From NCBI GenBank assembly GCA_023659895.1, contig JAGXOL010000005.1, positions 1 through 47,206 on the forward strand: a stretch of 47,206 bases of DNA, written 5' to 3'. The notes below the pieces were generated by a model. It ran no database searches and had not been told where the DNA came from. It saw only the letters and a list, made by a program, of their open reading frames with translations. Below, piece by piece: positions 12,305-41,732 of the stretch (position 1 is the first letter of the stretch; every line of letters begins with the position of its first letter). The position numbers were made by a program, and so were the translations under genes. Origin of the DNA: Candidatus Aenigmarchaeota archaeon LH_S7 (lineage in GTDB: Archaea > Aenigmatarchaeota > Aenigmatarchaeia > QMZS01).

Positions 12305-13258
12305 TTAGGGATTTTCAGTAGATTCTCTATTAAATTTACCAACTTTAAAAAATATATAGGAAAATATCCCTGAGATAGGTGCAAATAATATGCTCCTTAA
12401 AAATTCCAAGACAACCCATATACCAAAACTCATGAAAATAGGGAACCAGGTATATAAAGATTCCACAATTAAAGAATTTTCTATATTAGCTTCAACAACT
12501 CCACTCATGTTAATATCCTCTGTGGAAAAAGTACTATTAATAGAGTTCCTTAATTTTTTCTCTATTTCTGAGTATTGTTCCTCAGTTAAATTTGGGTACT
12601 GCTCTCTCACTTCTTTCATTCTTTTTTGAATTATATCATCTTTAACGTCTCCTTCTTGAATATTATTAACTTCAGAACTAATTATATTTCCCAAGCTTGA
12701 AGTTGTAGTATTCATAAAAGATTTTTGATAACTGTTATCCAAAGAGTAGGTTACAAAAGAACCCGCAAAAACTAACAAAAACAAAATGAAAAGCGCTTTA
12801 GAAACAGCATGACTACCTACCCTGAAGTGCTTCCACTTTTTTAATTCTCTCTCGTAGGTTTCTCCAAGAGGTATGACATAAACGCTTACTATATACAAAC
12901 CGAGACAAAAGAAGATGAATAATATTGAGAAATTAAACAAAAATCCAAAAGGCAAGAAAATCAAAATTAGGAAATATCTCAAATCTCCTAGTTTATTAAC
13001 AGAAAGGAAAGCTAGCCCACAAGAAAAAAATATTATTGCAAATAAAAAAATAAAGAAAGGTTCAAAATAAGTTAGTAAGAAATCTGTTATTGATAAATTT
13101 TGAATTTTTAAAATGAATAATTCTACTAGTCTTGATTGAAAAACTGTTATGTAACTTAAGCTAAGTTTACTAAAATACAAAATAAAAAATCCAATAGAAT
13201 ATAAAACCGATACAAACACAAATTTAAAAATCTCTAGATTAAAGAACTTATTTTCCAT
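12305..13258 (-). CDS. Hypothetical polytopic membrane protein
   Basis: About 6-7 TM helices; overlaps the upstream gene end. Confidence 0.75.
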   Translation of the reverse strand: MENKFFNLEIFKFVFVSVLYSIGFFILYFSKLSLSYITVFQSRLVELFILKIQNLSITDFLLTYFEPFFIFLFAIIFFSCGLAFLSVNKLGDLRYFLILIFLPFGFLFNFSILFIFFCLGLYIVSVYVIPLGETYERELKKWKHFRVGSHAVSKALFILFLLVFAGSFVTYSLDNSYQKSFMNTTTSSLGNIISSEVNNIQEGDVKDDIIQKRMKEVREQYPNLTEEQYSEIEKKLRNSINSTFSTEDINMSGVVEANIENSLIVESLYTWFPIFMSFGIWVVLEFLRSILFAPISGIFSYIFFKVGKFNRESTENP

Positions 13259-26050: not shown

Positions 26051-27265
26051 TTATCTATATTTTAGTAAAACTATCAGTAATGCTATGATAACAATTATTA
26101 GGATATAAAGAAGGTTATCTTGAATATTTATCAATACAGGCTTTGCTTCAATGGGTTGAACATTAATTATTGATTCTTTTGGGAAGGTGATTTTTTTAGA
26201 ATAATAGACATTACCTTTTACAATATATCTCCCCTGCTCCTTTGGAGTAAAATATGTTGTTAAATTAATCGTCTCTCCAACAGGAACATCAAGTTCATCA
26301 CTTTCTAAAACACCAACAATTCTATCATCTAAATGAATTTCACCTTTAAATTTAGCACTTGTTGTCAACTCTCCTGTATTCTTGAAAACACAATCTATTT
26401 TAACAACCTCACCAGTGTTTACCCATACTTTATTCGCTATGCGTATTAATTCTCCTTTTTTCTTTAATGCACCCTTTGCTAATATATCAAAAGTTAGTAA
26501 TTTCTGTTTCAAAACTTTCCCTCCTATTGATACACTAACATTTGCCCAATACTGTCCCTCTGTTAGATTCTCAGAAGAAATATTAAATTTGTCTGTTCCT
26601 GTTGTAGTTGGTAAAACTTCACTACAATCAAAATCAGCAGATTTTAAAATCTTGGTTTCATCTCTATCTAAAATATCTATATGAACCTGTGGACTTACTC
26701 TTACATTTCCTTTATTGTTTCCTGAGATAAAAAATTCTATAGGATAACCTACTTCAGCATCATTAATTGAAATTGAACTAACTTCATATTCCAAAAGTTG
26801 TTCACCTGTTATTTCTAAAAAAGACAATAACTTAACACCTGTTCTTGTGGTTGTAGCAAACTGAGTTGCTACACTCTCATTTGTCTGAGGGTTTGAATGT
26901 AAGGTAATTGAGCCATTATAAATTCCAATTGGAATATCTCCCGGTGGTTTTATAATTGCTTTAAGTTCAAATGTAGAGTTAGCAGGTATTATAAAGTTTT
27001 TTCCAAATTCAAAAGCTATCCAATCTTTGAATGGACCCTCCAGTGTAATTGTAATCTCCACAGGGACATCGTACCCATTAGTAATTATAATTGTTTTTTC
27101 TGCATAACCTCCTCTGAGAACTTTTTCAAATCTTACCTCCCCAGGACCAGCTCCTATTCCTCCAGCATAGGTAGCATTTAATAAAAACAAAACAGATAGA
27201 AAAAATGTAAAGATTACTAATTTTTTGTTTATTAGAATTTTATTTTTATATTTAACAGGAAGCAT
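26051..27265 (-). CDS. Secreted, C-terminally anchored protein, DUF916/WxL-interacting (PapD-like) type
   Basis: Signal peptide, GAGPGEV..KTIIITN, N.GNVRV.P..LP...L.EGQY.A motif, C-terminal TM; paralogous to 35091-36464. Family assignment is by eye. Confidence 0.55.
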   Translation of the reverse strand: MLPVKYKNKILINKKLVIFTFFLSVLFLLNATYAGGIGAGPGEVRFEKVLRGGYAEKTIIITNGYDVPVEITITLEGPFKDWIAFEFGKNFIIPANSTFELKAIIKPPGDIPIGIYNGSITLHSNPQTNESVATQFATTTRTGVKLLSFLEITGEQLLEYEVSSISINDAEVGYPIEFFISGNNKGNVRVSPQVHIDILDRDETKILKSADFDCSEVLPTTTGTDKFNISSENLTEGQYWANVSVSIGGKVLKQKLLTFDILAKGALKKKGELIRIANKVWVNTGEVVKIDCVFKNTGELTTSAKFKGEIHLDDRIVGVLESDELDVPVGETINLTTYFTPKEQGRYIVKGNVYYSKKITFPKESIINVQPIEAKPVLINIQDNLLYILIIVIIALLIVLLKYR

Positions 27266-27304
27266 AAATTTATAAATAAAAGTTAATAAAAATAGAAAAA
27301 TATT

Positions 27305-28267
27305 TTATCCTGCTTCTGCAACGAATTCTGTTTTTCCTGAACAGGTTCCTCTAACTCCAGTATCTGGAATCTTTATTAACCAATAAAGGTTACTTGTTGA
27401 TTCACCATCCGTAGTTCCTGAAGCATCATAGTAGTCCAAGTCAAAACCTACAAAGGCAGTTGAAGTTCCTGTAAGTTCAGTTCCATTAACAAATGCAAAG
27501 CTTGAGGTTTCATTAAATCTTATTCCTGTTGACGCAGCATCTGTTGTAATATTTGCTGAACCTGTTGCTGGACAATACAATTGTCCTGAATACTCACTTT
27601 CCCGTAGATCAACATCTATCAGCTGATTGCACCAGTTCGTAACATTTGTTTTTTGCTCTGAAGAAGTCTCTCCTAAAGCCAAAGTTCCATATTCGATTGA
27701 AGTCTCTTTTACATCCAAACCCAACATTGAATCTACTGTGTAAGTTGTTTCATTATTTCCAGTTGCATCTGAACTATCATTTACCACAATTTTCACTGTC
27801 CATATATTTGGTGATACTGTTGGGTCTATGAAATATCTTGTTTTATACGTACAGTTTACAGTTATATCCGTTCCTGATGCATCGGTCCATGTACAGTCAG
27901 TTCCTGCATTAGAGGCTGAACCATTTGAATAATGGTCATTTAAATCATCTGCTGAAGTCTCTGTTTTTGTTTCATTAAACCAAAAATTTGTGATTAATTT
28001 TGACTGATTAATATCCCCATATCCATTGTCATCACTTAAAGTCGACCAACAACTTACTGTAGTATTACTTCCTGCTGCTGGTGTTAATGATGAAGGTTCA
28101 CAAGTTATTGCTCCAACTGTTGGAGCCACATTACTTACTGTAACATTTGTTGTAAGATTTTCGTCAGATTGTGATGCTGCTGCTGGTTCTGGAGAAATTA
28201 GCCCTAAAGCAACTATTATGGAAACGCTAATTATTGTAATGCTTATTTTACCACTTATCTCAACCAT
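27305..28267 (-). CDS. Secreted T/S/D-rich beta-protein with WxL/fimbrial-like C-terminal domain
   Basis: Signal peptide, no anchor; ends LYWLIKIPDTGVRGTCSGKTEFVAEAG. Confidence 0.55.
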   Translation of the reverse strand: MVEISGKISITIISVSIIVALGLISPEPAAASQSDENLTTNVTVSNVAPTVGAITCEPSSLTPAAGSNTTVSCWSTLSDDNGYGDINQSKLITNFWFNETKTETSADDLNDHYSNGSASNAGTDCTWTDASGTDITVNCTYKTRYFIDPTVSPNIWTVKIVVNDSSDATGNNETTYTVDSMLGLDVKETSIEYGTLALGETSSEQKTNVTNWCNQLIDVDLRESEYSGQLYCPATGSANITTDAASTGIRFNETSSFAFVNGTELTGTSTAFVGFDLDYYDASGTTDGESTSNLYWLIKIPDTGVRGTCSGKTEFVAEAG

Positions 28268-28365
28268 ATATATATATTGATTTACATATATATATTATTT
28301 TCGGTTGTAGAAAAGTCAATATACCTATAGAAATTAACTATAAATATATTGAAATATTAATAATT

Positions 28366-28923
28366 ATGATATCGAGGAGTGAGATTGATATTTTGGCAAG
28401 TTTGTTTCCTGAGAAAAATTTTAAGACCATAAGAGAAATTCAGAAAAATTGCAATTACTCTTATGAAAGAATTCATTCTGGTCTATATTCATTAAGGAAA
28501 AAAGGAATACTGAAATTGAATAGAATAGGCCAGACAATTGTGGTAACTTTAAATTACAATTCTGATCTCGCTTTTTTAGGTTTTGTTAATTATTCTATAA
28601 ATAAAAAAATAAAAAATACACAATCGATAAAAGATGCAGAAAATTTTACCAAATGTATAGATGAGATACAAAACATAGATTCTGATTTAATATCTATTAT
28701 TGAAATCTCAATAATGCCAAAGGACAAAATAAAATTTTTCTGCATAGGCAACAAGAATTTAGAAAATAAAGCTCTTGGGATTGAGTATAGGTATAATATT
28801 AGAGTTAAACCAGTAGTTTTAACAGAGAAATCATTAAGAGAAAAAAGAAATGAAACAGAATTCTTAAATAGTACTGTTCTAAAAGGATTTGAAAAGTTTT
28901 ATAATTTGTTTTACTTGGATTAA
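28366..28923 (+). CDS. Winged-helix protein, possible regulator (degenerate nucleotidyltransferase-like C-terminal domain)
   Basis: TIREIQK..NYSYERIHSGL..L.KKGIL....IG wHTH; ends LKGFEKFY; transcribed divergently from 28267. Confidence 0.6.
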   Translation: MISRSEIDILASLFPEKNFKTIREIQKNCNYSYERIHSGLYSLRKKGILKLNRIGQTIVVTLNYNSDLAFLGFVNYSINKKIKNTQSIKDAENFTKCIDEIQNIDSDLISIIEISIMPKDKIKFFCIGNKNLENKALGIEYRYNIRVKPVVLTEKSLREKRNETEFLNSTVLKGFEKFYNLFYLD

Positions 28924-28952
28924 TATAAACTCATCACTAGTTAAATACTATC

Positions 28953-31406
28953 TCAGTTTTTATTTCTCCTTTTTTTATTGCTTTTTTGAAATGAATATTT
29001 CCTTTCCTCTAAAGGAGAGTGTTCTTTTAGAATTTCATCTTTGATTTCTTTAATAATATTTACTGATGAAACTTTGTGTTTGTCCAAGTGTCCCTCTCTT
29101 TTACGTATTATTATTTTATATAAAATAACAAGGATTATCAAAAATAAGATTACTATAATATTCTGAGTAATGAGACTTGAAGTTGCTGTTACAAATCCCG
29201 TAATACCTGCTCCTATATTAATTGTGTTATTTGTTTCAACTTCCCCCTCACTTTCTTTGATATCTGGCTCAAGTCCTTTGATGTTTATTATAAAATTTTT
29301 TGTTGCATTTGCCTCACCATCTACTTTAATCCCAACACTATATTGATTTTTGCAATCAACACATTGCTCTTTTGATACAGAGATATTCACTTCAATCTCT
29401 CTTTGCTCACCCACGCCCAATTTATCAATACTTGATGGATTTAATGTATACCATGAAAATGGAATATTCTCAATTTTTATATCAATATCACTTAAAGATA
29501 CTTGGCCAGTATTTTCAACAATAATTTTTATAGTAGAAGAATTACAGAGTTCTGAATCAACATAATTCGGAACTGAAATTTTCAATTCCTTCTTTTTGTA
29601 TACATTAAATGAAATAATTTTTTTAGCAGACGCATACATCTTTCCTGCTTCAGTAACAATATCAGATATTCCTTTCTGTTCGGGAGAATTAAAACTTATT
29701 GTAAATTCACCATTATTGTTAGTGGTTGTACTACCAGAAATATTAGAATCAGAAATGCTGTAACTTATTTTAGAATCTCCAACAGAATTGTTTTTATTAT
29801 CAAAAACTCTTCCATGTAATGTAGCACTCTCCCCCATGAAATAACTCTCTTTATCCAGATTTATTTCCAATTGAAGTGATTTTTCCTCACTTACAGCAAA
29901 GGTAGATAGAGAAGAGACATCAAAACTTATTAAGTTTTTATTCTTATCTACCTCATAATTAATAATCCTTTTCCAATCACCATTACAATACCTCTTTCCA
30001 AAATTCCAATTTCTACACTGATAAACAATTATTTTGTCTTCATCAACCTCAGAATCCACATATGGAATTATAATGTGTGCCTTTTGAAATTGAGAAGCAA
30101 ACTCTAAAGCGATAACTTTTACAGCATCTATTTCAGTTCCTTCAAAGAAATCATACTTTATAGGATTATATAAATAAATATCTTCTGAATAATTTAAAAT
30201 AGCATCGTAGAATTTAGCACTCACATCATCAAATGTCAGTTCGACATCATAAATCCCAGGAACTATTGCAATAGAATACTTCCCACTATTATCAGTTTCC
30301 AATTTTTCTTCTATATCTTCACCTCTTAATTTTATTTCAGCATACACAGGAGAATTATCAGCATCTACTATTGTACCCTTAAATGGAATTACAAACTGAA
30401 TAGGAAGTGGTAGAGAGGATTTTTTTGTAGTATTTTCATATGTCACGAATATATCCAGGTTATAAGGTTCTTTTCTTGGTATTTGTTTTGGTATATTTGT
30501 ATATAATCTCCAAACACCTCCTTCTTTGTAGTTTATTTTCCTTATTGTTACTTCTTCATTGTTTAACTTTGCCTTAAACTTTAAAAATTTACTTGAATCA
30601 ACTGGTTTCGATTTGTAATCCACTTTAACACTCAAATTAATATCAGCAGTATCAATAAGTTTATAGGGATTTAAAATTGATGGTTCAAGTATATTAACAT
30701 CAAGTAAAGGTTTTACATTTAGGTTTTTATCAGAGGTTGCAGAAAAGGAATGATTTTTATAAACAGCATTAACTACGAGATTTTTATTGTTAACAGATTT
30801 AAAGTTTTCTGGTACTTTGACTTTCAGTTTCCATGGAGAGATAGCATTTTCTGGAGAAAAAGTTTTTATTAGATTAAGTTCTTTATTATCTATCGTAATA
30901 TTAAACTTAACACCAGAAGGTGATACTGTTGTTATTCCGTTCTCTATTAGATCCAACTTAACTTTGACAGTCATCGGATCTAGGAGATATATTGTTGTAG
31001 ATTTAGGATTTGTGGGTGGAATTACAACATCTGTGATAGAAGCACTAAATTTATTAACATAAAAATCTTTACTTTTATTCTCTATTGAACTACTATTCTC
31101 ACAGAAAACTGTAACTGTGTATTTATCAGCACTTTCCTTTATACCAGTTAAATGATATGTAATACTGTAAGTTTGTCCTTTTTGAATAAAATTATGTATT
31201 GAGACATTATAATTTGAACCTATTATATTTGCAGAGACATTAGCATTTTCTGAACAACTAAATGATATGTTGATTGCATTACCATCATTTAGCCATACAC
31301 TTTCTGGAGTTATATTAAAATTTGATACTTTTAAAGCCGATGTTGGAAACCCTAAACTAATTAAAAAAATAAAACCCAAAATTAAAATCTTATTCCTTCC
31401 TATCAT
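28953..31406 (-). CDS. Large membrane-anchored surface protein (carboxypeptidase-regulatory-like and NEW3/CARDB-like Ig domains)
   Basis: Signal peptide, TDNSGKYSI..PG.Y, VSSLSTFAV, ENTGQV.LSDI, GITGF preceding the C-terminal TM. Confidence 0.75.
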   Translation of the reverse strand: MIGRNKILILGFIFLISLGFPTSALKVSNFNITPESVWLNDGNAINISFSCSENANVSANIIGSNYNVSIHNFIQKGQTYSITYHLTGIKESADKYTVTVFCENSSSIENKSKDFYVNKFSASITDVVIPPTNPKSTTIYLLDPMTVKVKLDLIENGITTVSPSGVKFNITIDNKELNLIKTFSPENAISPWKLKVKVPENFKSVNNKNLVVNAVYKNHSFSATSDKNLNVKPLLDVNILEPSILNPYKLIDTADINLSVKVDYKSKPVDSSKFLKFKAKLNNEEVTIRKINYKEGGVWRLYTNIPKQIPRKEPYNLDIFVTYENTTKKSSLPLPIQFVIPFKGTIVDADNSPVYAEIKLRGEDIEEKLETDNSGKYSIAIVPGIYDVELTFDDVSAKFYDAILNYSEDIYLYNPIKYDFFEGTEIDAVKVIALEFASQFQKAHIIIPYVDSEVDEDKIIVYQCRNWNFGKRYCNGDWKRIINYEVDKNKNLISFDVSSLSTFAVSEEKSLQLEINLDKESYFMGESATLHGRVFDNKNNSVGDSKISYSISDSNISGSTTTNNNGEFTISFNSPEQKGISDIVTEAGKMYASAKKIISFNVYKKKELKISVPNYVDSELCNSSTIKIIVENTGQVSLSDIDIKIENIPFSWYTLNPSSIDKLGVGEQREIEVNISVSKEQCVDCKNQYSVGIKVDGEANATKNFIINIKGLEPDIKESEGEVETNNTINIGAGITGFVTATSSLITQNIIVILFLIILVILYKIIIRKREGHLDKHKVSSVNIIKEIKDEILKEHSPLEERKYSFQKSNKKRRNKN

Positions 31407-32281
31407 TTTTTGAACCTTCTTAAAAATCTTCTCATACTCAAAAAGTTTGGTGGTTGATAATCTTTGCTGAGTAATTTTGCAGCAAGTTTATGGAATTCTA
31501 TCGTTGCTTTTGAATAAATGTTGTAATTTATTATTGGTGACCTGACAAATAAACTTTTTCTCATCTCTGGATCTTCTGGAATTTTGCAAAGTGTTGGAAC
31601 TCCGCACAAAATTTCAATTTCATCTGGTGACAATTCATACCCATCATTGTTGTATCTGTTAACGACTATACCCAAAACATCTTTTTTCATTTTTTTTGCA
31701 ATTTGAATGGTTTTCATGGCGTTTGTCATAGCAGGCATATCAGGAGTTGCAACAACAATAATTTCATTACATGCACTTACTGTTTTAAGTGATTCTTTAT
31801 CCAAACCCGGTGGAGAATCAACCAAAACAATTCCACTCAATTTCTTTAGTGTATTTTTTAGTTTTGATACATTTGCATGAATAGAACCAACAGATATAGA
31901 GGATGGAATTACCATGAATCCTGTAGAGGTTACATAAGTAGCCTTACTTATTCTTGATTCCCTATTTAATACATCCTGAAGAGTAACAGGAAAAGAATAT
32001 GTACCGAGATGAAGCCCTAAATTTGAAGCAGTGATATCCGCATCAACTACTGTAACATCCCCCTCAAGTTTATTAAGTGCTAATCCAAGATTTGCTGTTA
32101 CCACAGTTTTTCCAACACCTCCTTTTCCAGACACAATTCCTATAGTTCTTCTTGTTTGCTCACCCTTAACTTTACTATTAAGTGTATTAATTTGATTTTT
32201 AAATAAAAATTTCTCTTTTTTTTGATACAAATCAGACATAATATTTAATATGTTTTTATCAAATAAAAAGGTTAATTGCAT
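31403..32281 (-). CDS. minD: MinD/ParA-family ATPase
   Basis: Deviant Walker A SGKGGVGKT, VVDADI..NL, DSPPGL, GIVVNR, IPEDP. The true start may lie downstream of 32281. Confidence 0.88.
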   Translation of the reverse strand: MQLTFLFDKNILNIMSDLYQKKEKFLFKNQINTLNSKVKGEQTRRTIGIVSGKGGVGKTVVTANLGLALNKLEGDVTVVDADITASNLGLHLGTYSFPVTLQDVLNRESRISKATYVTSTGFMVIPSSISVGSIHANVSKLKNTLKKLSGIVLVDSPPGLDKESLKTVSACNEIIVVATPDMPAMTNAMKTIQIAKKMKKDVLGIVVNRYNNDGYELSPDEIEILCGVPTLCKIPEDPEMRKSLFVRSPIINYNIYSKATIEFHKLAAKLLSKDYQPPNFLSMRRFLRRFKK

Positions 32282-32324
32282 ATTTAGAAGGTTTTAGTAT
32301 TCAGGATAACAAATAAAAACAATA

Positions 32325-33008
32325 TCAAATGCACCAATTTTTATTAAATAGTGTTGCTGTTGAGTTGAATATAAATGATTGTATATTTGAAGTGTAATCC
32401 TTTATATATTCGTTATTCCAATTTTTGTAAACGAAATAAAAATCTGAAGTTGATGGGTCTATTGGTAACCAAGTCTCATCTATTTTAGTAAAAACATATC
32501 TATGCTCATAACCATCAGCAACATAAGCATTTATATTTTTTGCTTCTAAGAGAGCTGCTAATAGAATGGATTTCTCTGAACAATCACCTTTTCCTTTAGA
32601 TAAAATTTGTTCTGGTGTTAAAAGATCATCTACTTCTTCATATTTAATATTATTGTATACAAACTGATGTAGAGTATAAACTATTTCTAATTCAGTTGTT
32701 AGATTAAAAGTTAGATTATCTGCAACTGCTTTAATTTTTTGATTTTGCTGTAATAACTCTCTTAATCCGTTATGGTCTATGCAATATATTTGATGAAATT
32801 CTTCAATGTAAGGGTTAAACATTGAGGTGATATTCTCTTTGTTCTCTATCCAGTAATCTTTATAATTAGAAGTAGTAGCTGGTAAAACAAAATAACCTGT
32901 AGAACCAATGCTAAAGATTGGGCTAATTAGCAGTAAGATTATTATAGTAAATGCTAAACATACAAAGATTAATATTAGCCTTCTATTATAGTATATATTT
33001 ACCACCAT
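32325..33008 (-). CDS. Membrane-anchored transglutaminase-like cysteine protein
   Basis: FVYNNIKY, PEQIL..GKGDCSEKS.LL.ALL (Cys), H-R-Y, W..IDPS (Cys-His-Asp triad). Confidence 0.85.
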   Translation of the reverse strand: MVVNIYYNRRLILIFVCLAFTIIILLLISPIFSIGSTGYFVLPATTSNYKDYWIENKENITSMFNPYIEEFHQIYCIDHNGLRELLQQNQKIKAVADNLTFNLTTELEIVYTLHQFVYNNIKYEEVDDLLTPEQILSKGKGDCSEKSILLAALLEAKNINAYVADGYEHRYVFTKIDETWLPIDPSTSDFYFVYKNWNNEYIKDYTSNIQSFIFNSTATLFNKNWCI

Positions 33009-33164
33009 AATATAATTAATAACTCTTTATTCTTATTTATTTCTTTTGTCGCCTTCCTTTTTTCTTTACAAAAACAGAGGATTTATTTCTAAATATTCTA
33101 CTTTTTTTGTTCTTTACCTACTTCTTTCAATTTATGGTATATGTCTTTTTTCTCTTTTATATAA

Positions 33165-34466
33165 TCACTTTTTCCTGATTAATTTTTCTTTAAAATTTTG
33201 CTCTAAAATCCTTAATTTTTTATTTAATTTATTCCGCTCTTTTTTGAGTTGTTTTACAGATTTTTGTTTTAGTAGAAATAATTTCTTATTCCTCCTATAA
33301 AACAAGAGGATAACCATTAGTCCTATTATTATAACTAAAGCAATAATAAAATAGATTTCTGGGGTAAGTATAGAATCTATTTTAATCACACTCTTTGATT
33401 GTCCTTCATCATAAATAGACATTATTTCATAATAATAAGTTCCTTTAGGTAATTCAACATCAATTGTTGTTGATAACTCTTTTTCTATAACATCAAAATG
33501 TTTTATAAAACCTATTCCTTCAATCATGACATTAACATTGTGCAAAGAGAAATTGCATAGATTTTTGATATTCAGATTAATTTGCGTCATTTTATTAGCC
33601 TCAATTGTAAAGTTTTGCGGAGTAGATACTATACAATCTGCTGGAATAGAAACTCTTGGAATTTCTGGAGCGTAAATGATGAATGCACTTTTCCACTGTC
33701 TAGTTAAATCAGAAGCAATTACTCTAACAAAATGATGAGGATTTGTATAATTACTAATTACTACCACAATATTCTTTTCCTCACTGGGAGAAAGAGACCC
33801 AATACTTTTGTTGTATTTTAAATCTAATTTAGGCTTAGAAGTTAAATTTATAGTTAAATTTTCTAAACCAACATCTCCAGTATTTTTAACCCTAATTGTA
33901 ACCGAAGTTACTTCAGTTGCTTCAACCAGCCAAGGTACTTTAATTTCAAGGTCTTTATACTTAACAGTGTATACATAGTGCGATGGACCTCTTACTTCAG
34001 TTACTTTTTCAACAATCCTGGTAGGTATTTCCCTGGTCGGTATCTCAAAGCTGATTGTGCCTGTCGCTGTCGGAACTATAATTCCTGCTACAGATCTGTC
34101 TGTATAGTTTATTTCTGGTTTTTCTACTTCTACTTTTGGCTTAAATATAAGTGTGTGATTTTCAGATTGTATATCTTCCGGATTTATTATAACCTCGAAA
34201 GGTACTTTTATATCTGCTGGTTCTAATATAAGGTTTTTGGGATTGAAACTTACATGGGGTTCTAGATCTTTTGTTAGTGTTTCAAAGGTAATGTTTAAAT
34301 TATAAGGATATGAATTTGTTAGTGTGAAAGAAAAATTATACATTTCATTAGTGTTTAGTGTGCCAACCTCCATATCGGATGGTAATATACCAACACCCAA
34401 TACAGGAGTAGTTAAACATATCAACACTATTAAAAAAATCATTTCAGTCTTCATTGTTCTCACCAA
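33165..34466 (-). CDS. Secreted, C-terminally anchored Ig-domain protein (DUF916-like N-terminus)
   Basis: GVGILPS...FTLTN N-terminus similar to 26051 and 35091; VKNTGDV; C-terminal TM and basic coiled tail. Confidence 0.6.
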   Translation of the reverse strand: MVRTMKTEMIFLIVLICLTTPVLGVGILPSDMEVGTLNTNEMYNFSFTLTNSYPYNLNITFETLTKDLEPHVSFNPKNLILEPADIKVPFEVIINPEDIQSENHTLIFKPKVEVEKPEINYTDRSVAGIIVPTATGTISFEIPTREIPTRIVEKVTEVRGPSHYVYTVKYKDLEIKVPWLVEATEVTSVTIRVKNTGDVGLENLTINLTSKPKLDLKYNKSIGSLSPSEEKNIVVVISNYTNPHHFVRVIASDLTRQWKSAFIIYAPEIPRVSIPADCIVSTPQNFTIEANKMTQINLNIKNLCNFSLHNVNVMIEGIGFIKHFDVIEKELSTTIDVELPKGTYYYEIMSIYDEGQSKSVIKIDSILTPEIYFIIALVIIIGLMVILLFYRRNKKLFLLKQKSVKQLKKERNKLNKKLRILEQNFKEKLIRKK

Positions 34467-35094
34467 TTTTTACATAAGTACCCTTTTCTTTGCAGGGATT
34501 GCTTGTCTCATTATTGTATGTTGTAATTGTTATTTGTGATGTATAATTACCAGAGATCCCATTTCTAATCCGAAAATCAAAACCTGTTGTTTTATGCCCC
34601 ACCAATAAAATATCTGCGATGCATAATTCTTTATCATCTTTTTTTCCATCTATATCCTTGTCATTGTTATCTGGTATATTTTTCCAGCCAATTCCCGGAA
34701 TATATATTTGAAAATCACCATTTACTCGGCTTACATCTATATAATCTTCATCTATACCAAAGTCCTCTGCTGCAATAAGAACATCAACATTTGTACTACC
34801 AATGTTTTCCAAAGTAAAAGTTTGGGTTATATTGTCAAAGCTATCATACCCCCCTTTTACCCCTCCATAACTTCCATTATAACTGTACCAATTTCTATCT
34901 GCCTTTAAATTAATTTCAAATATAACATCCTCTTTTTGTTCTTCATAGAATACAGCATCTACCTGGTCTGTAATACCAACAGAAGTAACAGAGCTAAATA
35001 ATCCTGTAGTACTAAATTTATCATAAAAAATTGTGCTAAAACTCAAAACCAATAAAATGGGTATTATAACCATAATTAAAAATCTGTAATTCAT
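34444..35094 (-). CDS. Small secreted protein homologous to the C-terminal domain of the giant protein
   Basis: FTLENIGSTNVDVLI..FQIY..GW.N..IAD.L...FDFRIRNGISGNYTSQITIT. Confidence 0.65.
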   Translation of the reverse strand: MNYRFLIMVIIPILLVLSFSTIFYDKFSTTGLFSSVTSVGITDQVDAVFYEEQKEDVIFEINLKADRNWYSYNGSYGGVKGGYDSFDNITQTFTLENIGSTNVDVLIAAEDFGIDEDYIDVSRVNGDFQIYIPGIGWKNIPDNNDKDIDGKKDDKELCIADILLVGHKTTGFDFRIRNGISGNYTSQITITTYNNETSNPCKEKGTYVKIGENNED

Positions 35095-36464
35095 TTTCGC
35101 TTACTATATTTTCTCTTTAAATAAATGGATTTATCCTTCTTCTTTGAAGTCCTGAAATAAATAAATATTAGACCTATTACCACAATTATTAAGATAATCC
35201 AACTATTTTCTGAAATTGAGTTAAATATTAAAAATCCTGTTGGAACTTTCTCAGGCTTCTCTGAAAGTTGTTTTTGAAGTGGTTTACTCCAACACTCTTT
35301 TTCTTCTTTTTTGTCTCCATATTTTAGTTCTACTCTGACTTTATGGTCTCCGGATTTTCCACCATACCAAGATTTTTTTATTTCTTTGATTCCCCTCCCC
35401 TCTATTTCTCCGGAATCCTCTATTTCATCCACTTTATTTCCAAATTCATCAAATATATTGAATACTATTTCGTAACTTATATTGTCCTTAAAAATATTTT
35501 CAATTCCCAAATTTATTATCAAATCTCCGGATTCTGCCTGTTCCACTTTTAAACTTGAAACTCTGAGTTCTGCTTTTTCTACTTCATGTTGTGTATCCTG
35601 TCTGGGTTCTGCTTTTTCTACTTCATGTTGTGTATCCTGTACTTTACCACTAATATTGATTGTATAATTTTCTTCTTCTCTCACAGAAATATTACTCTTA
35701 ATTTCTGCTTGTTCTTCTTCTGATTTCTTTATTTCAAATGTTTTAGAAATAGTGCTTGTCTCATTGTTATCATATTCAACTTTAGCAATTGCATTATATC
35801 TTCCTGTTTCAAGTGAGGCAGTATTATATCTGATATCCATTTGGGTTAAACTTCCTGGACTAATTAAATACTGTGTTCTTCCTTTTACACTAGAATAATA
35901 AACTGGAGATGATCCATAATATTTTTGTATTTCAACGAAAGGAAATGCTCCGACTCTGACATTTCCTATATTCTTAGTGAATAACTGAAAATTTATATTA
36001 TTCTCTTCTTGGATAACTTTAAAATCCTTTAATTCTAATTTTTTTATAACTTCTCCTGGAATACTAAATTTTATCTCTGCTACAGAGGTTGATGTAATTT
36101 TAACACCACTTCCGCCTACTGCAGAGACCTCAGGCAAAATAGTTAGAATATGAATTCCGGGACCTACTTCGGAGATAGTATTTAGTAAAGTAACTTTTAC
36201 TTCTTTTGTTTCGTAAGCACCAAGTTCAAAACTGCTTGAATTAAGTGTAACATAAGTGGATAAATACTTAGCTCTTGGAGTTAAAGACAGAATTATATTA
36301 TTATTTGTATTATCCTGATTTCTTATAGAGATAAAAAATTCATAACTTTTACCTGACTCTAATTCTCCAGCATCAATTGGGGGGGATACTTTGATTGCCA
36401 AAGTGGTCTGACTAAACAAAATTATGAAAAGTAGTAAGGTTAATATTCTTCTCAAATTATCCAT
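35091..36464 (-). CDS. Secreted, C-terminally anchored DUF916/WxL-interacting-like protein
   Basis: AIKVSPP..FFISIRN, KNIGNVRV..ISPG...LETGRY.A, PTGF preceding the TM. Confidence 0.55.
   Translation of the reverse strand: MDNLRRILTLLLFIILFSQTTLAIKVSPPIDAGELESGKSYEFFISIRNQDNTNNNIILSLTPRAKYLSTYVTLNSSSFELGAYETKEVKVTLLNTISEVGPGIHILTILPEVSAVGGSGVKITSTSVAEIKFSIPGEVIKKLELKDFKVIQEENNINFQLFTKNIGNVRVGAFPFVEIQKYYGSSPVYYSSVKGRTQYLISPGSLTQMDIRYNTASLETGRYNAIAKVEYDNNETSTISKTFEIKKSEEEQAEIKSNISVREEENYTINISGKVQDTQHEVEKAEPRQDTQHEVEKAELRVSSLKVEQAESGDLIINLGIENIFKDNISYEIVFNIFDEFGNKVDEIEDSGEIEGRGIKEIKKSWYGGKSGDHKVRVELKYGDKKEEKECWSKPLQKQLSEKPEKVPTGFLIFNSISENSWIILIIVVIGLIFIYFRTSKKKDKSIYLKRKYSKRK
35563..35640. repeat. 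39-bp in-frame tandem duplication
   Basis: GTTCTGCTTTTTCTACTTCATGTTGTGTATCCTGT occurs twice with period 39 (QDTQHEVEKAE x2). Confidence 0.9.
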
Positions 36465-36531
36465 AATTGTAACTACAATTATTTATTTCAATCTAACACT
36501 GCATCCAGATTATTTTCCCAATTTTTAAAAC

Positions 36532-39500
36532 TTAAGGTACAAAATAACTACCAACACTACAACCAGAAATATCTGAATAAGCAACAAACTGTAGAGTGGC
36601 GCTATAACTAGATGGTGCAACTCCATCAGGAACCCTAACCTGAAAATCTATATCACTCAGATTTGTATTAGCAGGAAGATCACAGGCTACCGCCATTCCA
36701 TATGCATCACCATCATGAATTTTACTTGATACATTGAACCAGGCAGAACTATTATAAATCTGTATATTATCAGCTCCATTAGCCCCAATAGCTGGTGGGT
36801 CCTGACATCCTGAATCATCTCCATCTGTAGTTGAATCAGAACTCGAGCAAATATAATAACTAGAAGAATAATCTCCTAAAGCATACATAAGAATATCTAC
36901 AGTATTGCTTCCATTATTTTCAATAGTGAAATTACAAGTACTGCCATCTCCATCATCTGCTAAACTCGAATTACAACTACCATCTACTCCAGCATAGCAA
37001 TAATATTGAAAATTTAAAGGAATGTCATTAATATTCCATGACTTATCACTAGAATTATCTGTTTCATGAACAGAAATAGTCAATGCTGTAATCTTTATTT
37101 CTCTTGTTTCTGTTTTGTTTTCATTTCCTGCTGTATCATTTGCTGTTGCGTTTAGGTAATAAGTATCTCTTGCTAAATCCGTGTAGTTAATGTAGATTTG
37201 TGTGTCTGAGGTTGTGTTTTCTTGGTATAGACCTGTTGAGTTGTAGAGATTAAGAGTTAGGGTATCTAGGTTAGTATCTGAGACTGTCACATTTGCTGAG
37301 ATCCAAGTCTCGGTTTGATTTCCTGTTTCTGTTGTAGGGGTTACAAATTGTATTTCCGGTGGAACAGCTATTGTTATATTTGTATTTGTTGTTGAGTTTG
37401 AATAACCTACTCCATCATAGGCTGTTGCAGTTATGTTATAAGTTCCATCTGGAGCATATAAATGGACTTCCCAATCTTCAGAAGAGTTGGTTGTTGAGTT
37501 TATGATTGTTCCTCCCTGTTTTATTGATATGTTTGTATAATTTAGGGTAAGGTCTGTTGATGTTCCATTTATGATATAATTGTTTGTAATGGAATTTGAA
37601 TCTGGGTAAATTATTGAAATTGTTGGTGGTGTTGTATCAACATTTAAATATCTTAGTTTATTGTTATCTGTCTGCCCTTCATTAGAAGCTGTATCATTTG
37701 CCCAGCCGTAATAAGTATAAGTTCCATCTGCTAAATCTGTTACATTATCATAAAACCTGTATTGAGTTGAATTGAACTTTGAGAATTCTGACTTATAGTG
37801 CATTTTTATTTCATCTGGTGAAAGAGCCCTATTGTAAATCCTGACTTCATCGATTGTGCCATTGAATAAATAATCCCCAATTAAAAGATTATTCGTATTT
37901 GTTGAGATTGATCCTGTTAATGCTTGAGATGTCTTCAATTCTCCGTTTACATAAAGTTTCTGCTCTGAGCTATTATAAGTTTGGGTGATATGGTTCCAGC
38001 CAGAAGAAATTGCTCCTGCTATTGTCTCGTTGTTTATTGAGGCAAAAGCAGTTGTTGTGTTTGCACCGATTCCATAACTTCCTGCCTTTGAAATTCCTGC
38101 TGCGGTTTCATTTCCAACTGTTGCATTTGGCTCAGTGGAGGTATATTTGCGGACGCGGATGTCATCTACATGTACAGTAATTGTATTACCAGCTCCTTTA
38201 CTACCGGCTACTATAAACATTGGATAAGGATCCTGAAACTCATCATCTTTGCCTTCAAGGGTTATATTATTATCCCAAATCGATCTCAAATTGCTTTCAT
38301 TGGCTAAGAGTTTTATACTATGCCAGTTTGAATCAGGATCATGAGTGTGGTTTTCAAAAGCAGTTGAGGTAGAACCCTTTATTTTTCTCAAGGCAATCCC
38401 GTCATAGTAATCCTGTTCTGTGAAATCATAATAATCACGATCATCACCACTATAGTCATGCCGCAAGATTCCAAATTGATACATATAATTTTGTTCATGT
38501 ATCTCAAATCGATAGTTTGTCTCATAAACTACTTTTCTAGGGAGCTTTGTAAATGTTTTCCATCCTTCGTATACCCACGAATCTGCAGTCGCAGTAACTG
38601 AAAGATTAAGCTCCCCATTTATTATTTCAGAACTCCCATCTGTCCAGCTATGGTTCCATTTAGAAGAATCTGGAAGGCTCCCGTCAGGTAGATTAAAATC
38701 ATCAAAAAATTCAAAGGTATTAGCTCCACCTTTTGTGTTGTTATAGGTTGCACTCGGATTTCCATAATACATATAAATCTTATCTGTGTTATTAGTTGCT
38801 ACTTTAACCCAGATTGTAGAATTTCCTGTTGTGTTCCATTTCTCGAGCCAGTAATTCAGCTTTGTTCCATTTGACTGATAGAATCTTAAATCATCACCAT
38901 CAGACTGAGCATGTGAATAATCGAAATTAGTTGTGTTTAATTCTACCTTAACCTGATAATCAGTTTCTGGAGTGGCTGGATCGAGAGTGATTGGCTTTTT
39001 ATATGCCCAAGCATCCAAAGGATTCATCCAGGATTCTACAGTAATCGCATCAGTAATATCCAAACTACTATCATTCCCGCAATCCACATAATCATCTAAG
39101 CCATCAAAAGAGAGAGCCTTGCCAAATTTGCCATCTACATACTGTGCCCTAATTACACTTTCTTCTCCTTTATCAACAGTTAGATCATAATTCTGTTCAG
39201 TAGTAATTCCACCAGTATTTGGAATTCCAGCCTCAGAATTTCCATAATAGACATAATAATCTGAGGTTAAGTCTCCATTTCCGATTGTATCCTGAGCATT
39301 GAACCAGATCATTGTATCTGAGGAATTAAATTCAGTTGAGTTTGTCCTGTTTATCTCTGTTGTTACATGGATAATTCTCAGATCATCTCCATTCGCCAAT
39401 AATTTTCCAGCAGAAACCAAACTCGCAGTATCTAAAGTGAAGTTTATTGGATCTCCTGCTGTAAGATTTGTTGCATTGTTATTTGTGATTGTTAGTTTCT

Positions 39501-41661
39501 TTCTGTATTTAAAACTGTCATTCCACCAATCACTTGGTTTTGCTATTGTCCCATTATTTCCATACTTTGAAATATCTACTGCTTTTGTTTCGTTTTCTCC
39601 AATAGCTGAATTATTGTTGAAATTCATTCCTAAGACTAAGGAATCATCATAGAATGTGTAATTTGTTGTGTTCCAGTTGAATTTGAAAGTATCAAGATTC
39701 AGTTCATCAATTGTGATGTTTGCTTCTGTCCAATTTCTTGATATTGTTGTTCCATTTGGCTCTGTTGGGGGAGTAAAGTTCAGAACTGGGTTGGTTGTGT
39801 CCAAGGTTATTGTCCTTATTTTTTGTCCTATGTTCCCTAAAGTGTCGTTTGCTGTTGCATTTAGGTAATAAGTATCTTCTGGTAAATCCGTGTAGTTAAT
39901 GTAAATTTGTGTGTCTGAGGTTGTGTTTTCTTGGTATAGTCCTGTTGAGTTGTAGAGAGTTAGGTTTATTGTGTCCAATCCTACTCCTGAGTCTGGAGCT
40001 GTTACATTTGCTGAAATCCAGTCCTGGAAGTGGTTTCCTGCTTCTGTTGTTGGGTCTGTGAAATTGATTTCTGGTGGTGTTGTGTCTAAATTAATTGTCC
40101 TCGTTTCTGTCTGATTTGTATTTCCTGCTGTATCATTAATATAAGCCTTAATTGTGTAAGTTCCATCTGATAAGGAAGTTTTATTCTCCCAATAAACATC
40201 TCCTGATTGATTGTCAAAAGTTTCATTAGTTCCATTCCATTCAAACAGAACTGTATCTTTGTTTGTGTCTGAAGCAGTTACATTAATGAAAATCCAGTTC
40301 TGAGAATAATTACCTTCTTGGGTTGTTGTTGGATTATAAGATATTGTTGGTGATGTAGTATCAACACCAATATCTATACTAGAACTCTGCCCTGTTTTTT
40401 GACTAGAATCAGTATCAGTACAATTAACATAAACTGTGTAGGTGCTATCTGACAAACTTGTATTAGATTCAAGATTTGTTAATGTGTTGTTCTGAACTGA
40501 TGAATTAGTTCCATAAGCAGTACCATTAAAATAAACAGTGCAGCTAAAAGTTTGGTTACTATCATCAGTTGCAGTAAAATTAACATCTGGTGTTGTATCA
40601 GTTGTGTCGTAACTTGTGGAGTTCATTGTAACATTTGGAGCTTGGTTTGGGGTATAAGTAACATTTATAATAAGTTGGTCGAGTAGTATATCAACATTTT
40701 GGTCACTATCTTCGTAAGCAGTAAAATTCATAACCATTTTGCTTGCTTTTGCTGCTGTGTTTATAACATCTTTTATGGATGTGCCATTAGCTAGAGTATC
40801 ATAGTAATAAGTGGTATAACTCGCTGGTGCTGTATTGGTATTATTCCACTCTTCTAGCAGGTACCAGTCAGGTGTTCCAGACTCATTATCACCTATCCAC
40901 AATTTTGCCCAGCTTCCTGCTTCATTAGTTAGAGCTTCATCTGTATCCCATACAAAAGTTGCATTTATTAAATCTATAGTTGAGCTGTTAGGTATAGTTT
41001 TGTTATCATAATCTGCTACCACAGTCCATGTCCCCGCTTTATCCAAATCATTAGATGTGCTAATAGTCGTATCATCTACATCGTGAAGTGCACTGACATC
41101 TACTGCACCATCCAAATCAGGGTTATCTGTATACCTTGTTGCATATTGTGTAATTGTAGTCGGGTCGCTCCACTCCACCTCAACAGAAGAACTCAATCCT
41201 TTAATATTTGTTGCAGTAATTGTTGTTATATAATCTCTTTGCTCAGTGTTGTGAACAAGCCAATCTCCTTGCCAGGTTCCTTGATATAAAGAGCCATTTA
41301 TCAATTCCAATTCAATTGTTTCTATACCACCAATATCTGCTATTACTGAAGAAATTCCATAATTGTCCTCAATTTCTGCTGTTATTATCATTGTATCCCC
41401 TGGTCTGACTTTTGATGGTTCTACTGAGGCTGATTTTATTTTTGGTGCAGAGATCTTTTGAGAGAGTTGATTTTCATTTCCTGCTGTATCATTAATATAA
41501 GCCCTAATTGTATGATTTCCATCTCCACCAGTAAAAATCACACCAGATAAAAATACAGAAGCTGCTAAAGATAATAACAATCCAATAATTAATCCAGTTT
41601 TAAGAGTTTTGTTTTTCACCTTTCCTATATTCTTACTCATCCCTAATAATTCTATACCCAT
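36532..41661 (-). CDS. Giant secreted glycoprotein/adhesin: Ig-like repeats, LamG domain, two DUF2341 domains, C-terminal WxL-like domain
   Basis: DxAGN Ig repeats; LamG motifs GKFGKALSFDG.DDYV and FNGTIDEVRIYNRALS; DUF2341 motifs DGDDLR...YxYYGN x2. Start probably 41661 or 41640. Confidence 0.85.
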   Translation of the reverse strand: MGIELLGMSKNIGKVKNKTLKTGLIIGLLLSLAASVFLSGVIFTGGDGNHTIRAYINDTAGNENQLSQKISAPKIKSASVEPSKVRPGDTMIITAEIEDNYGISSVIADIGGIETIELELINGSLYQGTWQGDWLVHNTEQRDYITTITATNIKGLSSSVEVEWSDPTTITQYATRYTDNPDLDGAVDVSALHDVDDTTISTSNDLDKAGTWTVVADYDNKTIPNSSTIDLINATFVWDTDEALTNEAGSWAKLWIGDNESGTPDWYLLEEWNNTNTAPASYTTYYYDTLANGTSIKDVINTAAKASKMVMNFTAYEDSDQNVDILLDQLIINVTYTPNQAPNVTMNSTSYDTTDTTPDVNFTATDDSNQTFSCTVYFNGTAYGTNSSVQNNTLTNLESNTSLSDSTYTVYVNCTDTDSSQKTGQSSSIDIGVDTTSPTISYNPTTTQEGNYSQNWIFINVTASDTNKDTVLFEWNGTNETFDNQSGDVYWENKTSLSDGTYTIKAYINDTAGNTNQTETRTINLDTTPPEINFTDPTTEAGNHFQDWISANVTAPDSGVGLDTINLTLYNSTGLYQENTTSDTQIYINYTDLPEDTYYLNATANDTLGNIGQKIRTITLDTTNPVLNFTPPTEPNGTTISRNWTEANITIDELNLDTFKFNWNTTNYTFYDDSLVLGMNFNNNSAIGENETKAVDISKYGNNGTIAKPSDWWNDSFKYRKKLTITNNNATNLTAGDPINFTLDTASLVSAGKLLANGDDLRIIHVTTEINRTNSTEFNSSDTMIWFNAQDTIGNGDLTSDYYVYYGNSEAGIPNTGGITTEQNYDLTVDKGEESVIRAQYVDGKFGKALSFDGLDDYVDCGNDSSLDITDAITVESWMNPLDAWAYKKPITLDPATPETDYQVKVELNTTNFDYSHAQSDGDDLRFYQSNGTKLNYWLEKWNTTGNSTIWVKVATNNTDKIYMYYGNPSATYNNTKGGANTFEFFDDFNLPDGSLPDSSKWNHSWTDGSSEIINGELNLSVTATADSWVYEGWKTFTKLPRKVVYETNYRFEIHEQNYMYQFGILRHDYSGDDRDYYDFTEQDYYDGIALRKIKGSTSTAFENHTHDPDSNWHSIKLLANESNLRSIWDNNITLEGKDDEFQDPYPMFIVAGSKGAGNTITVHVDDIRVRKYTSTEPNATVGNETAAGISKAGSYGIGANTTTAFASINNETIAGAISSGWNHITQTYNSSEQKLYVNGELKTSQALTGSISTNTNNLLIGDYLFNGTIDEVRIYNRALSPDEIKMHYKSEFSKFNSTQYRFYDNVTDLADGTYTYYGWANDTASNEGQTDNNKLRYLNVDTTPPTISIIYPDSNSITNNYIINGTSTDLTLNYTNISIKQGGTIINSTTNSSEDWEVHLYAPDGTYNITATAYDGVGYSNSTTNTNITIAVPPEIQFVTPTTETGNQTETWISANVTVSDTNLDTLTLNLYNSTGLYQENTTSDTQIYINYTDLARDTYYLNATANDTAGNENKTETREIKITALTISVHETDNSSDKSWNINDIPLNFQYYCYAGVDGSCNSSLADDGDGSTCNFTIENNGSNTVDILMYALGDYSSSYYICSSSDSTTDGDDSGCQDPPAIGANGADNIQIYNSSAWFNVSSKIHDGDAYGMAVACDLPANTNLSDIDFQVRVPDGVAPSSYSATLQFVAYSDISGCSVGSYFVP

Positions 41662-41732
41662 TTTCTTCACCTTTTTCAACAACATAATAAAACTCTGTTG
41701 CACCTTATTTATAGTTAATGTCACAATTTTTT

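Follow-up and report, generated by a model that had tools for sequence, protein, structure and literature searches.

A candidate chaperone-guided, usher-less surface fibre with WxLIP-like anchored proteins in an Aenigmatarchaeota archaeon

What kind of surface machine is encoded by a compact cluster of genes for secreted and membrane-anchored proteins in the genome of Candidatus Aenigmarchaeota archaeon LH_S7 (assembly GCA_023659895.1; 740 kb, 85% complete, 56 contigs)? The cluster lies on the minus strand of contig JAGXOL010000005.1, of which a stretch of 47,206 nucleotides (positions 1 to 47,206, hereafter the window) was analysed. From 41724 down to 26051 it encodes proteins of 1730, 457, 216, 433, 227, 292, 817, 320 and 404 amino acids (aa), with a 185-aa open reading frame (ORF) on the plus strand between the 817- and 320-aa genes. 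Adjacent genes overlap or almost touch (457/216 by 4 nt; 216/433 by 23 nt, counted from a TTG start), and archaeal housekeeping genes, namely split RNA polymerase subunit B, RadA and an archaeal-type MinD, flank the locus. An earlier note on this DNA had proposed a WxL/Csc-like assembly system made of three pairs of secreted subunit and membrane-anchored partner; all the ORFs and motifs it quoted were found where it placed them, and the genes that it omitted between the pairs (transglutaminase-like, MinD and 817-aa) are included here. We propose, with a probability of roughly 55%, that this DPANN archaeon (Aenigmatarchaeota) encodes here a strand-exchange fibre that is guided by chaperones, needs no usher and bears a giant lectin-type adhesin at its tip, and that it likely serves for attachment to a host cell or surface.

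Membrane-anchored chaperones that work without an usher have precedents in two bacterial systems, the Elr/WxL pilus (10.64898/2026.10.17.759780) and the Pam pilus (PMC13278184). As set out in the accessible part of a preprint dated 17 October 2026, the elr WxL operon of E. faecalis builds a pilus in which ElrE, a DUF916-DUF3324 membrane chaperone, donates a strand that completes the WxL fold of the subunits, while ElrD polymerises through N-terminal donor-strand exchange (10.64898/2026.10.17.759780). ElrE is the WxL-interacting protein (WxLIP), ElrD and ElrC are WxL pilins, ElrA is the tip adhesin and ElrB an LPxTG terminator (10.64898/2026.10.17.759780; PMC10599100; PDB 9i1y, 9i25); large WxL tip adhesins carry the WxL module at their C-terminus (10.64898/2026.10.17.759780, Fig. 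4 legend). By analogy, the idea of a chaperone plus subunits joined by donor strands, raised earlier for this locus, now has a worked precedent in WxL pili (10.64898/2026.10.17.759780). In the same accessible part, a survey that applied the Pfam cut-offs to a single proteome from each genus (4,698 genera, 81 phyla) is reported to have met WxL pili in Bacillota only, the criterion being PF06030 and PF11797 on one protein, both above their gathering thresholds (10.64898/2026.10.17.759780), a combination that the proteins of the present locus do not show.

A simple hydropathy scan agrees with the proposed division into three unanchored secreted proteins (1730, 216 and 320 aa), whose sole hydrophobic segment is N-terminal, and three anchored partners (457, 433 and 404 aa), which have an N-terminal segment and a C-terminal membrane helix, as has the 817-aa protein. 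Since pairwise BLASTP among the ten locus proteins is weak throughout, profiles were used instead. In its AlphaFold2 (AF2) model (pLDDT 84.3), the 457-aa candidate chaperone (35091..36464, minus strand) begins with a signal peptide, after which come domain 1 (24-135) and domain 2 (143-245); beyond a low-confidence linker lie a third, immunoglobulin-like (Ig-like) domain (300-393), a membrane helix (placed at 417-440 or 421-440) and a basic tail. The shared N-terminal domain that had been noticed among the partners is borne out by the profile of the 457-aa family: the 404-aa protein (26051..27265, minus), whose gene is paired with that of the 320-aa protein, aligns to it over 237 columns and both domains (hhalign 98.8%, E 4e-17), and the 433-aa protein (33165..34466, minus), a candidate second chaperone or base anchor by its gene position, over 155 columns that cover domain 1 and the start of domain 2 (97.7%, E 1.4e-12). 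Judged from these alignments, the three are paralogues. As had been observed, two of them, the 457- and 404-aa proteins, carry the motifs N.GNVRV and L..G.Y.A. The 404-aa protein has both chaperone domains, a further Ig-like region and the membrane helix; the 433-aa protein has diverged after domain 1, ends in a long basic cytoplasmic tail and resembles the 817-aa protein over residues 104-238 (BLASTP 4.4e-6). The 817-aa protein was itself tried as a member of the chaperone family and rejected (hhalign 26.9% over 34 columns).

Several lines of evidence tie these partners to the DUF916/DUF3324 anchors of Bacillota, a kinship that the earlier note had suspected. The 457-aa protein matches PF11797 (WxLIP_HBD, DUF3324) with E 6.4e-4 and 20.1 bits, or 23.1 bits in a scan of the genome, the cut-off being 28.9. 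An exhaustive phmmer search with it found 100 proteins (E<=1e-3), in each case by way of the query's first ~250 residues (~5-260). Among the 100 rows of this alignment, 21 match WxLIP_HBD (best 6.1e-9) and 18 match WxLIP_PGBD (PF06030, DUF916; best 9.3e-15), each at E<=0.01; in single scans of 55 of the 99 phmmer matches, six pass the Pfam cut-off for PF06030 and one that for PF11797. Furthermore, the 16 closest sequences, which form the archaeal subfamily, align as a profile with nine PF06030 matches (the six above the cut-off and three just below it) over 223 columns and both domains (hhalign 99.6%, E 1.1e-24), the alignment spanning the motifs PG.H, PGE, N.GNV and G.Y.A.

The predicted structure points the same way. 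Foldseek matches the 457-aa model to the solved WxLIP structures of E. faecium (9i1y_A, E 1.4e-10, TM 0.56; 9i25_C, E 2.4e-10, TM 0.60), which are the compact whole-target matches of the list, and also to the CFA/I chaperone CfaA (6k73_B, E 7.2e-8). With VIA-align, residues 22-258 of the model superpose on 9i1y_A with Z 12.9 and rmsd 4.9 over 217 of 267 residues, and the model superposes on 9i25_C, which is bound to a long WxL protein, with Z 12.2 and rmsd 4.5 over 211 of 251; the other rows with at least ~175 aligned residues have rmsd 11-19, so that in them the two domains are not superposed as a unit. Taken by itself, the third domain is similar to the Ig-like domains of GH2 enzymes (Z 14.7). 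Because transitive links between hidden Markov models, the profile-profile match and the predicted two-domain structure converge, the anchored partners can be regarded, from sequence and model, as remote but solid homologues of the WxL-interacting pilus chaperone. Matches to the WxLIP_PGBD model, mostly below cut-off, were also seen in two control genomes, Sulfolobus acidocaldarius and Methanosarcina acetivorans, which hints at further archaeal relatives.

The secreted side of the locus is dominated by the giant (36532..41724, minus; 1730 aa from GTG, with a likelier ATG start at 41661), a candidate tip adhesin. After its single N-terminal hydrophobic segment come bacterial Ig-like repeats, DUF2341 and two laminin-G/concanavalin-like lectin stretches (Pfam DUF2341 6.8e-21, Laminin_G_3 2.6e-17, Big_13 1.8e-12), and it carries 97 N-glycosylation sequons. 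Its pairwise BLASTP match to the 216-aa protein (34444..35094, minus), the candidate major pilin, is marginal (E 0.066, the best relevant pair among the locus proteins); the profile of the 216-aa family aligns to its last 222 residues with hhalign 97.6% (E 4.5e-12, 152 columns), up to a common ending C..G.Y[VF].P. The C-terminal domain of the giant (about residues 1552-1730; 36535..37071, minus) is thus homologous to the small protein, an arrangement repeated in four related loci, and the logic of small and large, lectin-bearing subunits known from WxL loci recurs here. Parts of the giant's Ig-repeat region (window 37095-40205) are found again, with 68-93% nucleotide identity, on five more contigs of the genome (C28, C15, C44, C53 and C2), several of these matches lying where a contig ends. 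Probably, additional giant adhesin genes exist in this genome and share Ig-repeat cassettes, and these repeats break the assembly.

The 216-aa protein belongs to a family of its own, with 18 homologues of 207-239 aa that a profile search raised to 27 (202-239 aa overall), all at E<=4.2e-65; nothing weaker appeared up to E 0.1, and no Pfam domain was found on any of the 27 members. A 91%-identical copy of the gene lies on a contig of a Candidatus Aenigmarchaeota archaeon. An Atlas search with the 216- and 320-aa proteins returned only unnamed archaeal clusters, the nearest named one being Peptidase_M73 (score 0.79, a name held by just 12% of its members), and the family profile gave matches at chance level only against the sequences of the PDB (IpgB2, E 0.03). 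Besides two invariant cysteines (C158 and C201), the family conserves an extra N-terminal strand at about residues 35-42 (TSVGITDQ). In the AF2 model (pLDDT 80.5, pTM 0.73) this strand stands between an N-terminal helix (3-26) with a low-confidence linker (25-32) and an all-beta domain. A joint alignment of the giants of five loci, that of the window and the four related ones, shows no counterpart of the TSVGI.DQ strand: their terminal domain begins with 'ISVHE', opposite the pilin's 'AVFYE', straight after the last Ig repeat.

According to its model, the 216-aa protein is a pilin-like beta-sandwich. FimA chains occupy Foldseek ranks 1-7, the second being titled 'Self-complemented FimA subunit', and are followed by Csu pilins, Pyrobaculum bundling pili and the Sulfolobus thread; a single match has E<=0.001 (6.8e-4) and TM lies at 0.3-0.45. 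The match to pilin folds is no more than middling. On a second look, the FimA chains align from model residue 27-34, N-terminal strand included, and most other pilin chains listed only from residue 42-46, which is suggestive of a model that folds its own N-terminal strand into the place of the donor strand.

A second kind of subunit is represented by the 320-aa secreted two-domain protein (27305..28267, minus), with a family of its own (10 homologues). The earlier note had attributed one C-terminal beta-domain to all three secreted proteins; this stands for the giant and the 216-aa protein and fails for the 320-aa protein, which has no detectable homology to the 216-aa family (hhalign 0.6%, both as single sequence and profile to profile), the sole aligned part being a short 'N.GN..IDV.L' strand. 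Among the 371 genomes of the phylum, its module occurs in 27, where it makes up small proteins and also closes longer ORFs (837, 1287, 1495 and 2327 aa) at their C-terminus. A comparison of the two match lists places a chaperone-family match within ~1.2 kb of a 320-aa-type match in at least 12 of the 27 genomes, a lower bound because 150 of the 889 chaperone-family matches were listed. From the free and giant-borne forms of both modules it emerges that two unrelated terminal modules obey one rule: a free small form, a giant ending in it and a chaperone-family gene alongside.

The pairing of subunit and anchor, a point to be checked across genomes, proves to be conserved. In four related genomes the order giant, 457-type, 216-type, 433-type is kept, and the 433-type gene lies directly downstream of the pilin gene in five of five related loci; the fifth genome has two proteins with the 320-aa-type module, one of them of 836 aa, upstream of the pilin and the 433-type gene. 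In this sense the idea of three subunit/anchor pairs holds for their adjacency. To take the pairs as equivalent would be an oversimplification, given the divergence of the 433-aa protein after domain 1. In a close relative (locus L020, proteins 81-96% identical), the 320/404-aa pair runs in inverted orientation with respect to the core and lies right against the 817-aa gene (window 26051-28923 versus L020:12873-15087); at the borders of the cassette in the window, a search for inverted repeats gave only AT-rich matches, the long ones poorly complementary. In another related locus, a shortened pilin paralogue of 169 aa (L022:8477-8986, minus), without ~50 mid-domain residues, follows the 817-aa gene and could be a cap or terminator variant.

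Beyond the subunits and their partners, the locus encodes a 292-aa cytoplasmic P-loop ATPase of the archaeal MinD type (31403..32281, minus; NCBIfam TIGR01969 minD_arch, 1.1e-66, above cut-off) and the 817-aa surface protein (28953..31406, minus; Pfam CarboxypepD_reg 5.4e-11), which starts with a signal peptide and contains carboxypeptidase-regulatory-like and Ig-like domains; its C-terminal membrane helix leads into ~50 aa of cytoplasmic tail, and the protein is a candidate for a membrane platform or base anchor. In all three related loci that extend far enough (L020, L022, L024), MinD and the 817-aa gene follow the core. Homologues of the 817-aa protein occur in 114 of the 371 genomes; 50 of the 101 places listed at E<=1e-30, corresponding to at least 47 of 95 genomes as counted from the listed places and matches, lie within 6 kb of a listed chaperone-family match. 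The chaperone family itself is matched in 327 of 371 genomes at E<=1e-5, a threshold that also admits other Ig-like proteins, and at E<=1e-25 in 101 of the 274 genomes with a completeness of 80% or more and in 39 of the 98 of high quality. The 216-aa family is found in nine of 371 (E<=1e-3), six with the full-length small form and three with weak matches inside long ORFs.

Eight more distant loci (L028-L035), a biased sample because they were picked for both matches on one contig, share a chaperone-like protein of 310-326 aa with signal peptide and membrane helix, one or two small exported proteins and an anchored 817-aa homologue (~770-830 aa, often near ORFs of 770-1950 aa). The small exported proteins measure ~166-196 and ~245-274 aa, the longer one having a C-terminal hydrophobic segment in two of the eight loci; in all eight, small secreted Ig-like proteins lie between the chaperone-like gene and MinD/817-aa, and the 433-aa gene of the window occupies the spot where these loci have a shorter protein, between the small secreted protein and MinD/817-aa. 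MinD adjoins the 817-aa homologue in seven of the eight, as in L020, L022 and L024; L031 has neither MinD nor the ~170-aa exported protein. An exported protein of ~300 aa is encoded upstream, divergently in six loci and on the same strand in L029. Such a composition seems to be the usual form that the system takes in Aenigmatarchaeota. From these loci and from the linkage of 817-aa and chaperone-family genes, it follows that MinD and the 817-aa protein belong to a widespread module, of which the window locus is a variant with a particular pilin and a giant adhesin.

How would such a machine work? All its parts would be exported by Sec, and the WxLIP-like proteins (457, 404 and perhaps 433 aa) would be held in the membrane by their C-terminal helix. 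The 216-aa pilin would donate its extra N-terminal strand to the preceding subunit's groove, displacing the chaperone. The 1730-aa lectin/Ig protein, with the same C-terminal domain and no donor strand, could act as strand acceptor only and would for this reason sit at the tip. The 320-aa protein with its own chaperone may constitute a second, parallel module. On the membrane side, the 817-aa protein, together with MinD on the cytoplasmic face, would form a base or positioning platform, which MinD would place or cluster by way of the 817-aa protein's cytoplasmic tail; the 817- and 433-aa proteins may anchor the base or act as terminator, and a part in subunit processing or cross-linking is conceivable for the transglutaminase-like enzyme. 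The roles given here to MinD and to the 817-aa, 433-aa and transglutaminase-like proteins are guesses from position and topology.

The proposal is supported by the chaperone-like proteins, in both their homology and their fold, by the terminal domain common to pilin and giant, by the pilin-like fold, by the extra strand of the small subunit and by the conserved gene order. Several considerations weigh against it. Strand complementation and exchange, binding of chaperone to subunit and formation of a polymer are what we infer from the Elr and Pam systems by analogy, and the three anchored paralogues, the MinD ATPase and the large anchored protein have no counterpart in Elr. The locus proteins fall short of the Pfam cut-offs for both WxLIP domains, PF06030 matching none of them, and the archaeal chaperone profile retrieved no Enterococcus WxLIP from the PDB sequences at E<=1, a chance match to CEP192 (E 0.046) being met instead. 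By sequence, the 216-aa family is not WxL, contrary to what the earlier note had supposed for the subunit domain, since PF13731 finds nothing at E<=10 in the entire 740-kb genome translated in six frames. Among the best 50 rows of three fold searches with the pilin model, the WxL chain of 9i25 was absent, although the two may still share a fold. The conserved strand agrees with the Elr donor-strand consensus [ST]-x-[GA]-x-[VI]-x-F through S-V-G-I-[IT] only and lacks the Phe. Among 48,161 chains, VIA-align gave the 216-aa model no Z>=8 (best 7.5, a glycosidase domain), with pilins and PapD/MSP-like domains only at Z 4.4-6.3 (pilins at 4.5-6.4 once the second look is included), so its fold could be a generic Ig-like sandwich. 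Moreover, because the 216-aa family is so much rarer than the chaperone family (9 of 371 against 101 of 274 genomes), the anchored proteins may have a more general role. A complex prediction for the 457-aa ectodomain (24-262) and the mature 216-aa protein (28-216) scored 0.02, the mark being 0.32, with an uncertain fold of the partner chain and no controls, and so does not count on either side of the question of binding.

The chief rival explanation is that of a static display, in which the WxLIP-like proteins serve to tether the adhesins to the membrane, whether through strand complementation or simple binding, and nothing polymerises. The homology and fold of the anchors fit it equally well; three anchors and three secreted proteins, each pair of genes adjacent, would suit a one-to-one tethering, and it corresponds to the older 'cell-surface complex' model of Csc/WxL clusters, as presented in the accessible part of PMC10599100. 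For the homologous bacterial system, the part of the preprint at hand replaces that model by a pilus (10.64898/2026.10.17.759780). A small pilin whose extra N-terminal strand is missing from the giant's copy speaks against mere display, as does the fact that its best structural analogues are polymerising pilins, and we consider this explanation unlikely. Next in rank, and of slightly lower probability, comes a general envelope or S-layer-related module made of the anchored Ig-like proteins, the 817-aa protein and MinD, to which the secreted adhesins would be independent neighbours and in which no protein would act as a chaperone. It would account for the far greater frequency of the chaperone family (327/371; 101/274) and of the 817-aa family (114/371) than of the 216-aa family (9/371), as well as for a pilin fold match of generic strength. 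Against it speak the specific two-domain match to a demonstrated pilus chaperone, the small secreted Ig-like proteins intercalated in the eight distant loci (with the bias already mentioned), and the sharing of one terminal module by small and giant proteins in two unrelated module families.

A relation to type IV pili, with the 216-aa protein as an archaeal type IV pilin assembled by a PilB/FlaI-type ATPase encoded 3 kb upstream, seems very improbable to us. The helix (3-26) ahead of a beta-sandwich in the 216-aa model and the presence of a T2SSE-family ATPase gene at 44894-47131 would speak for it. Yet the class III cleavage motif ([KR][GA]) is not conserved, a [KR]G pair, read as RG, preceding the hydrophobic stretch in only two of 19 members. 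Furthermore, the low-confidence linker (25-32) parts the helix from the domain, the giants carry the domain C-terminally with no adjacent helix, and the ATPase gene stands on the other strand, beyond a TnpB-like gene and three small ORFs; the type IV pilin reading was accordingly rejected.

Compared with the Elr/WxL system, the proposed fibre shares an anchored two-domain chaperone-like protein, homologous and superposable, with a signal peptide, two Ig-like domains and a C-terminal helix; a small subunit bearing an extra N-terminal strand, together with a giant adhesin ending in the domain of that subunit; clustered genes; and the lack of an usher. It differs by its archaeal host, by a subunit domain that is not WxL by sequence and by having no LPxTG protein (the motifs LP.TG, NP.TG, PGF and PEF are absent from all 10 locus proteins). 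It further differs by three diverged chaperone paralogues, two of them with an extra third Ig-like region (in the 404-aa protein, hints only), and by the added MinD ATPase, 817-aa anchored protein and transglutaminase-like protein. The Pam pilus, from the candidate phyla radiation (CPR) bacterium Ca. Mycosynbacter amalyticus, comprises the pilins PamA/B/E, a single-domain tip (PamT), a membrane-anchored terminator (PamR) and, with no usher, the membrane-anchored PapD-like chaperones PamC and PamD, as stated in the accessible part of its description (PMC13278184). By that description, which is the only basis of our comparison, it is likewise a system of an ultra-small episymbiont without outer membrane, with several paralogous chaperones ending in a C-terminal helix, no usher and a membrane-anchored protein proposed as base tether; its pilins have two domains, donate a linker strand and are reported from CPR only (PMC13278184).

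The tip adhesin FimH of the classical chaperone-usher pili ends in a pilin domain, much as the giant does. The 216-aa model aligns with FimA, CS17, CfaB and Csu at Z 5.0-6.4, and the 457-aa model matches CfaA. These systems differ from the present one, in which the chaperone is anchored, there is no periplasm, and neither an usher nor PapD_N (PF00345) was detected by Pfam in any of the window's 34 ORFs (the 10 of the locus scanned at E<=1, the other 24 at E<=1e-3); the nearest PapD-related match is a flagellar PapD-like domain on the 404-aa protein (E 0.16). Archaeal filaments joined by strand donation include Sulfolobus threads (PMC9715654), Pyrobaculum bundling pili (PMC9245690), haloarchaeal tafi (PMC12337348, PMC11821415) and Pyrodictium cannulae (PMC12518558). 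Their subunits, as far as the available parts of these papers describe them, are beta-sandwich proteins exported by Sec or Tat, a likeness to this locus, where strand donation is presumed. The 216-aa model is weakly like their folds (7pnb, Z 5.5; 9p0a, 4.6; 7ueg, 4.5; 9bac, 4.4), and a TasA/camelysin-like or thread-like comparison gives Z 4.5-5.5 to 8aur, 7ueg, 9p0a and 7pnb. A sequence-level relation of the 216-aa family to these pilins was found neither with its profile among the PDB sequences nor in the family search. In the same accessible parts, such filaments are described as chaperone-free or with no chaperone identified (for the threads, a chaperone or usher could not be assigned; PMC9715654), whereas here a chaperone homologue lies beside each subunit.

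What the locus shares with the bacterial systems of 2026 is the chaperone; it departs from them in its domain of life, in its subunit families, in having multiple chaperone paralogues and in the MinD/817-aa module. The published literature that we searched yielded no paper on a WxLIP-like or other pilus chaperone in archaea, in line with what the earlier note knew of the matter, and the chaperone-guided assembly of the fibre that the locus most likely builds is, as far as this search goes, a route so far undescribed in archaea. If the proposal is true, it would extend chaperone-guided strand exchange to Archaea and offer a concrete candidate for host attachment by ultra-small episymbionts, as well as a testable system whose small pilin and chaperone ectodomain could be co-expressed. 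Furthermore, the link to MinD and a large anchored protein, unseen in the bacterial systems, may show how a fibre is placed or anchored without a cell wall. A bolder generalisation, which we put forward tentatively and at somewhat worse than even odds, is that of a widespread Aenigmatarchaeota surface machine, in which a conserved anchored chaperone works with pilin and tip modules that can be exchanged and come from two or more unrelated families, on a base of 817-type protein and MinD. Pili built by membrane-tethered chaperones would in that case be a general solution for single-membrane cells in both domains, and a main device of DPANN episymbionts for host attachment.

Two further members of the locus deserve mention. 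The 227-aa membrane-anchored transglutaminase-like protein (32325..33008, minus; Pfam Transglut_core 2.1e-9), a papain-fold cysteine enzyme, is encoded in two of the three related loci reaching that far (L020 and L024, not L022); its participation in the processing or cross-linking of subunits is speculative. The 185-aa ORF (28366..28923, plus) is winged-helix-like, with matches below cut-off to TrmB (E 0.031) and Lrs14 (E 0.015), and could be a regulator; its membership is doubtful, and no homologue was found in the close relative L020 (BLASTP, E<=1e-3).

In the surroundings of the locus, a 357-aa ORF with a Cas12f1-like TNB domain (TnpB-like, E 1.9e-20; 42068-43141, minus) is located between the gene of the giant and the divergent gene for the 745-aa T2SSE-family (PilB/FlaI-like) ATPase (44894-47131). 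The next gene downstream of the 404-aa gene (23790-25757, minus) encodes a secreted S8 subtilase of 655 aa with a prodomain of the fervidolysin type; this enzyme might take part in the processing of surface proteins. Large ORFs of no clear family at 12305-16859 and 20025-23410 (both minus), of 1203 (NPCBM_assoc), 317, 586 and 542 aa, may encode further surface proteins.

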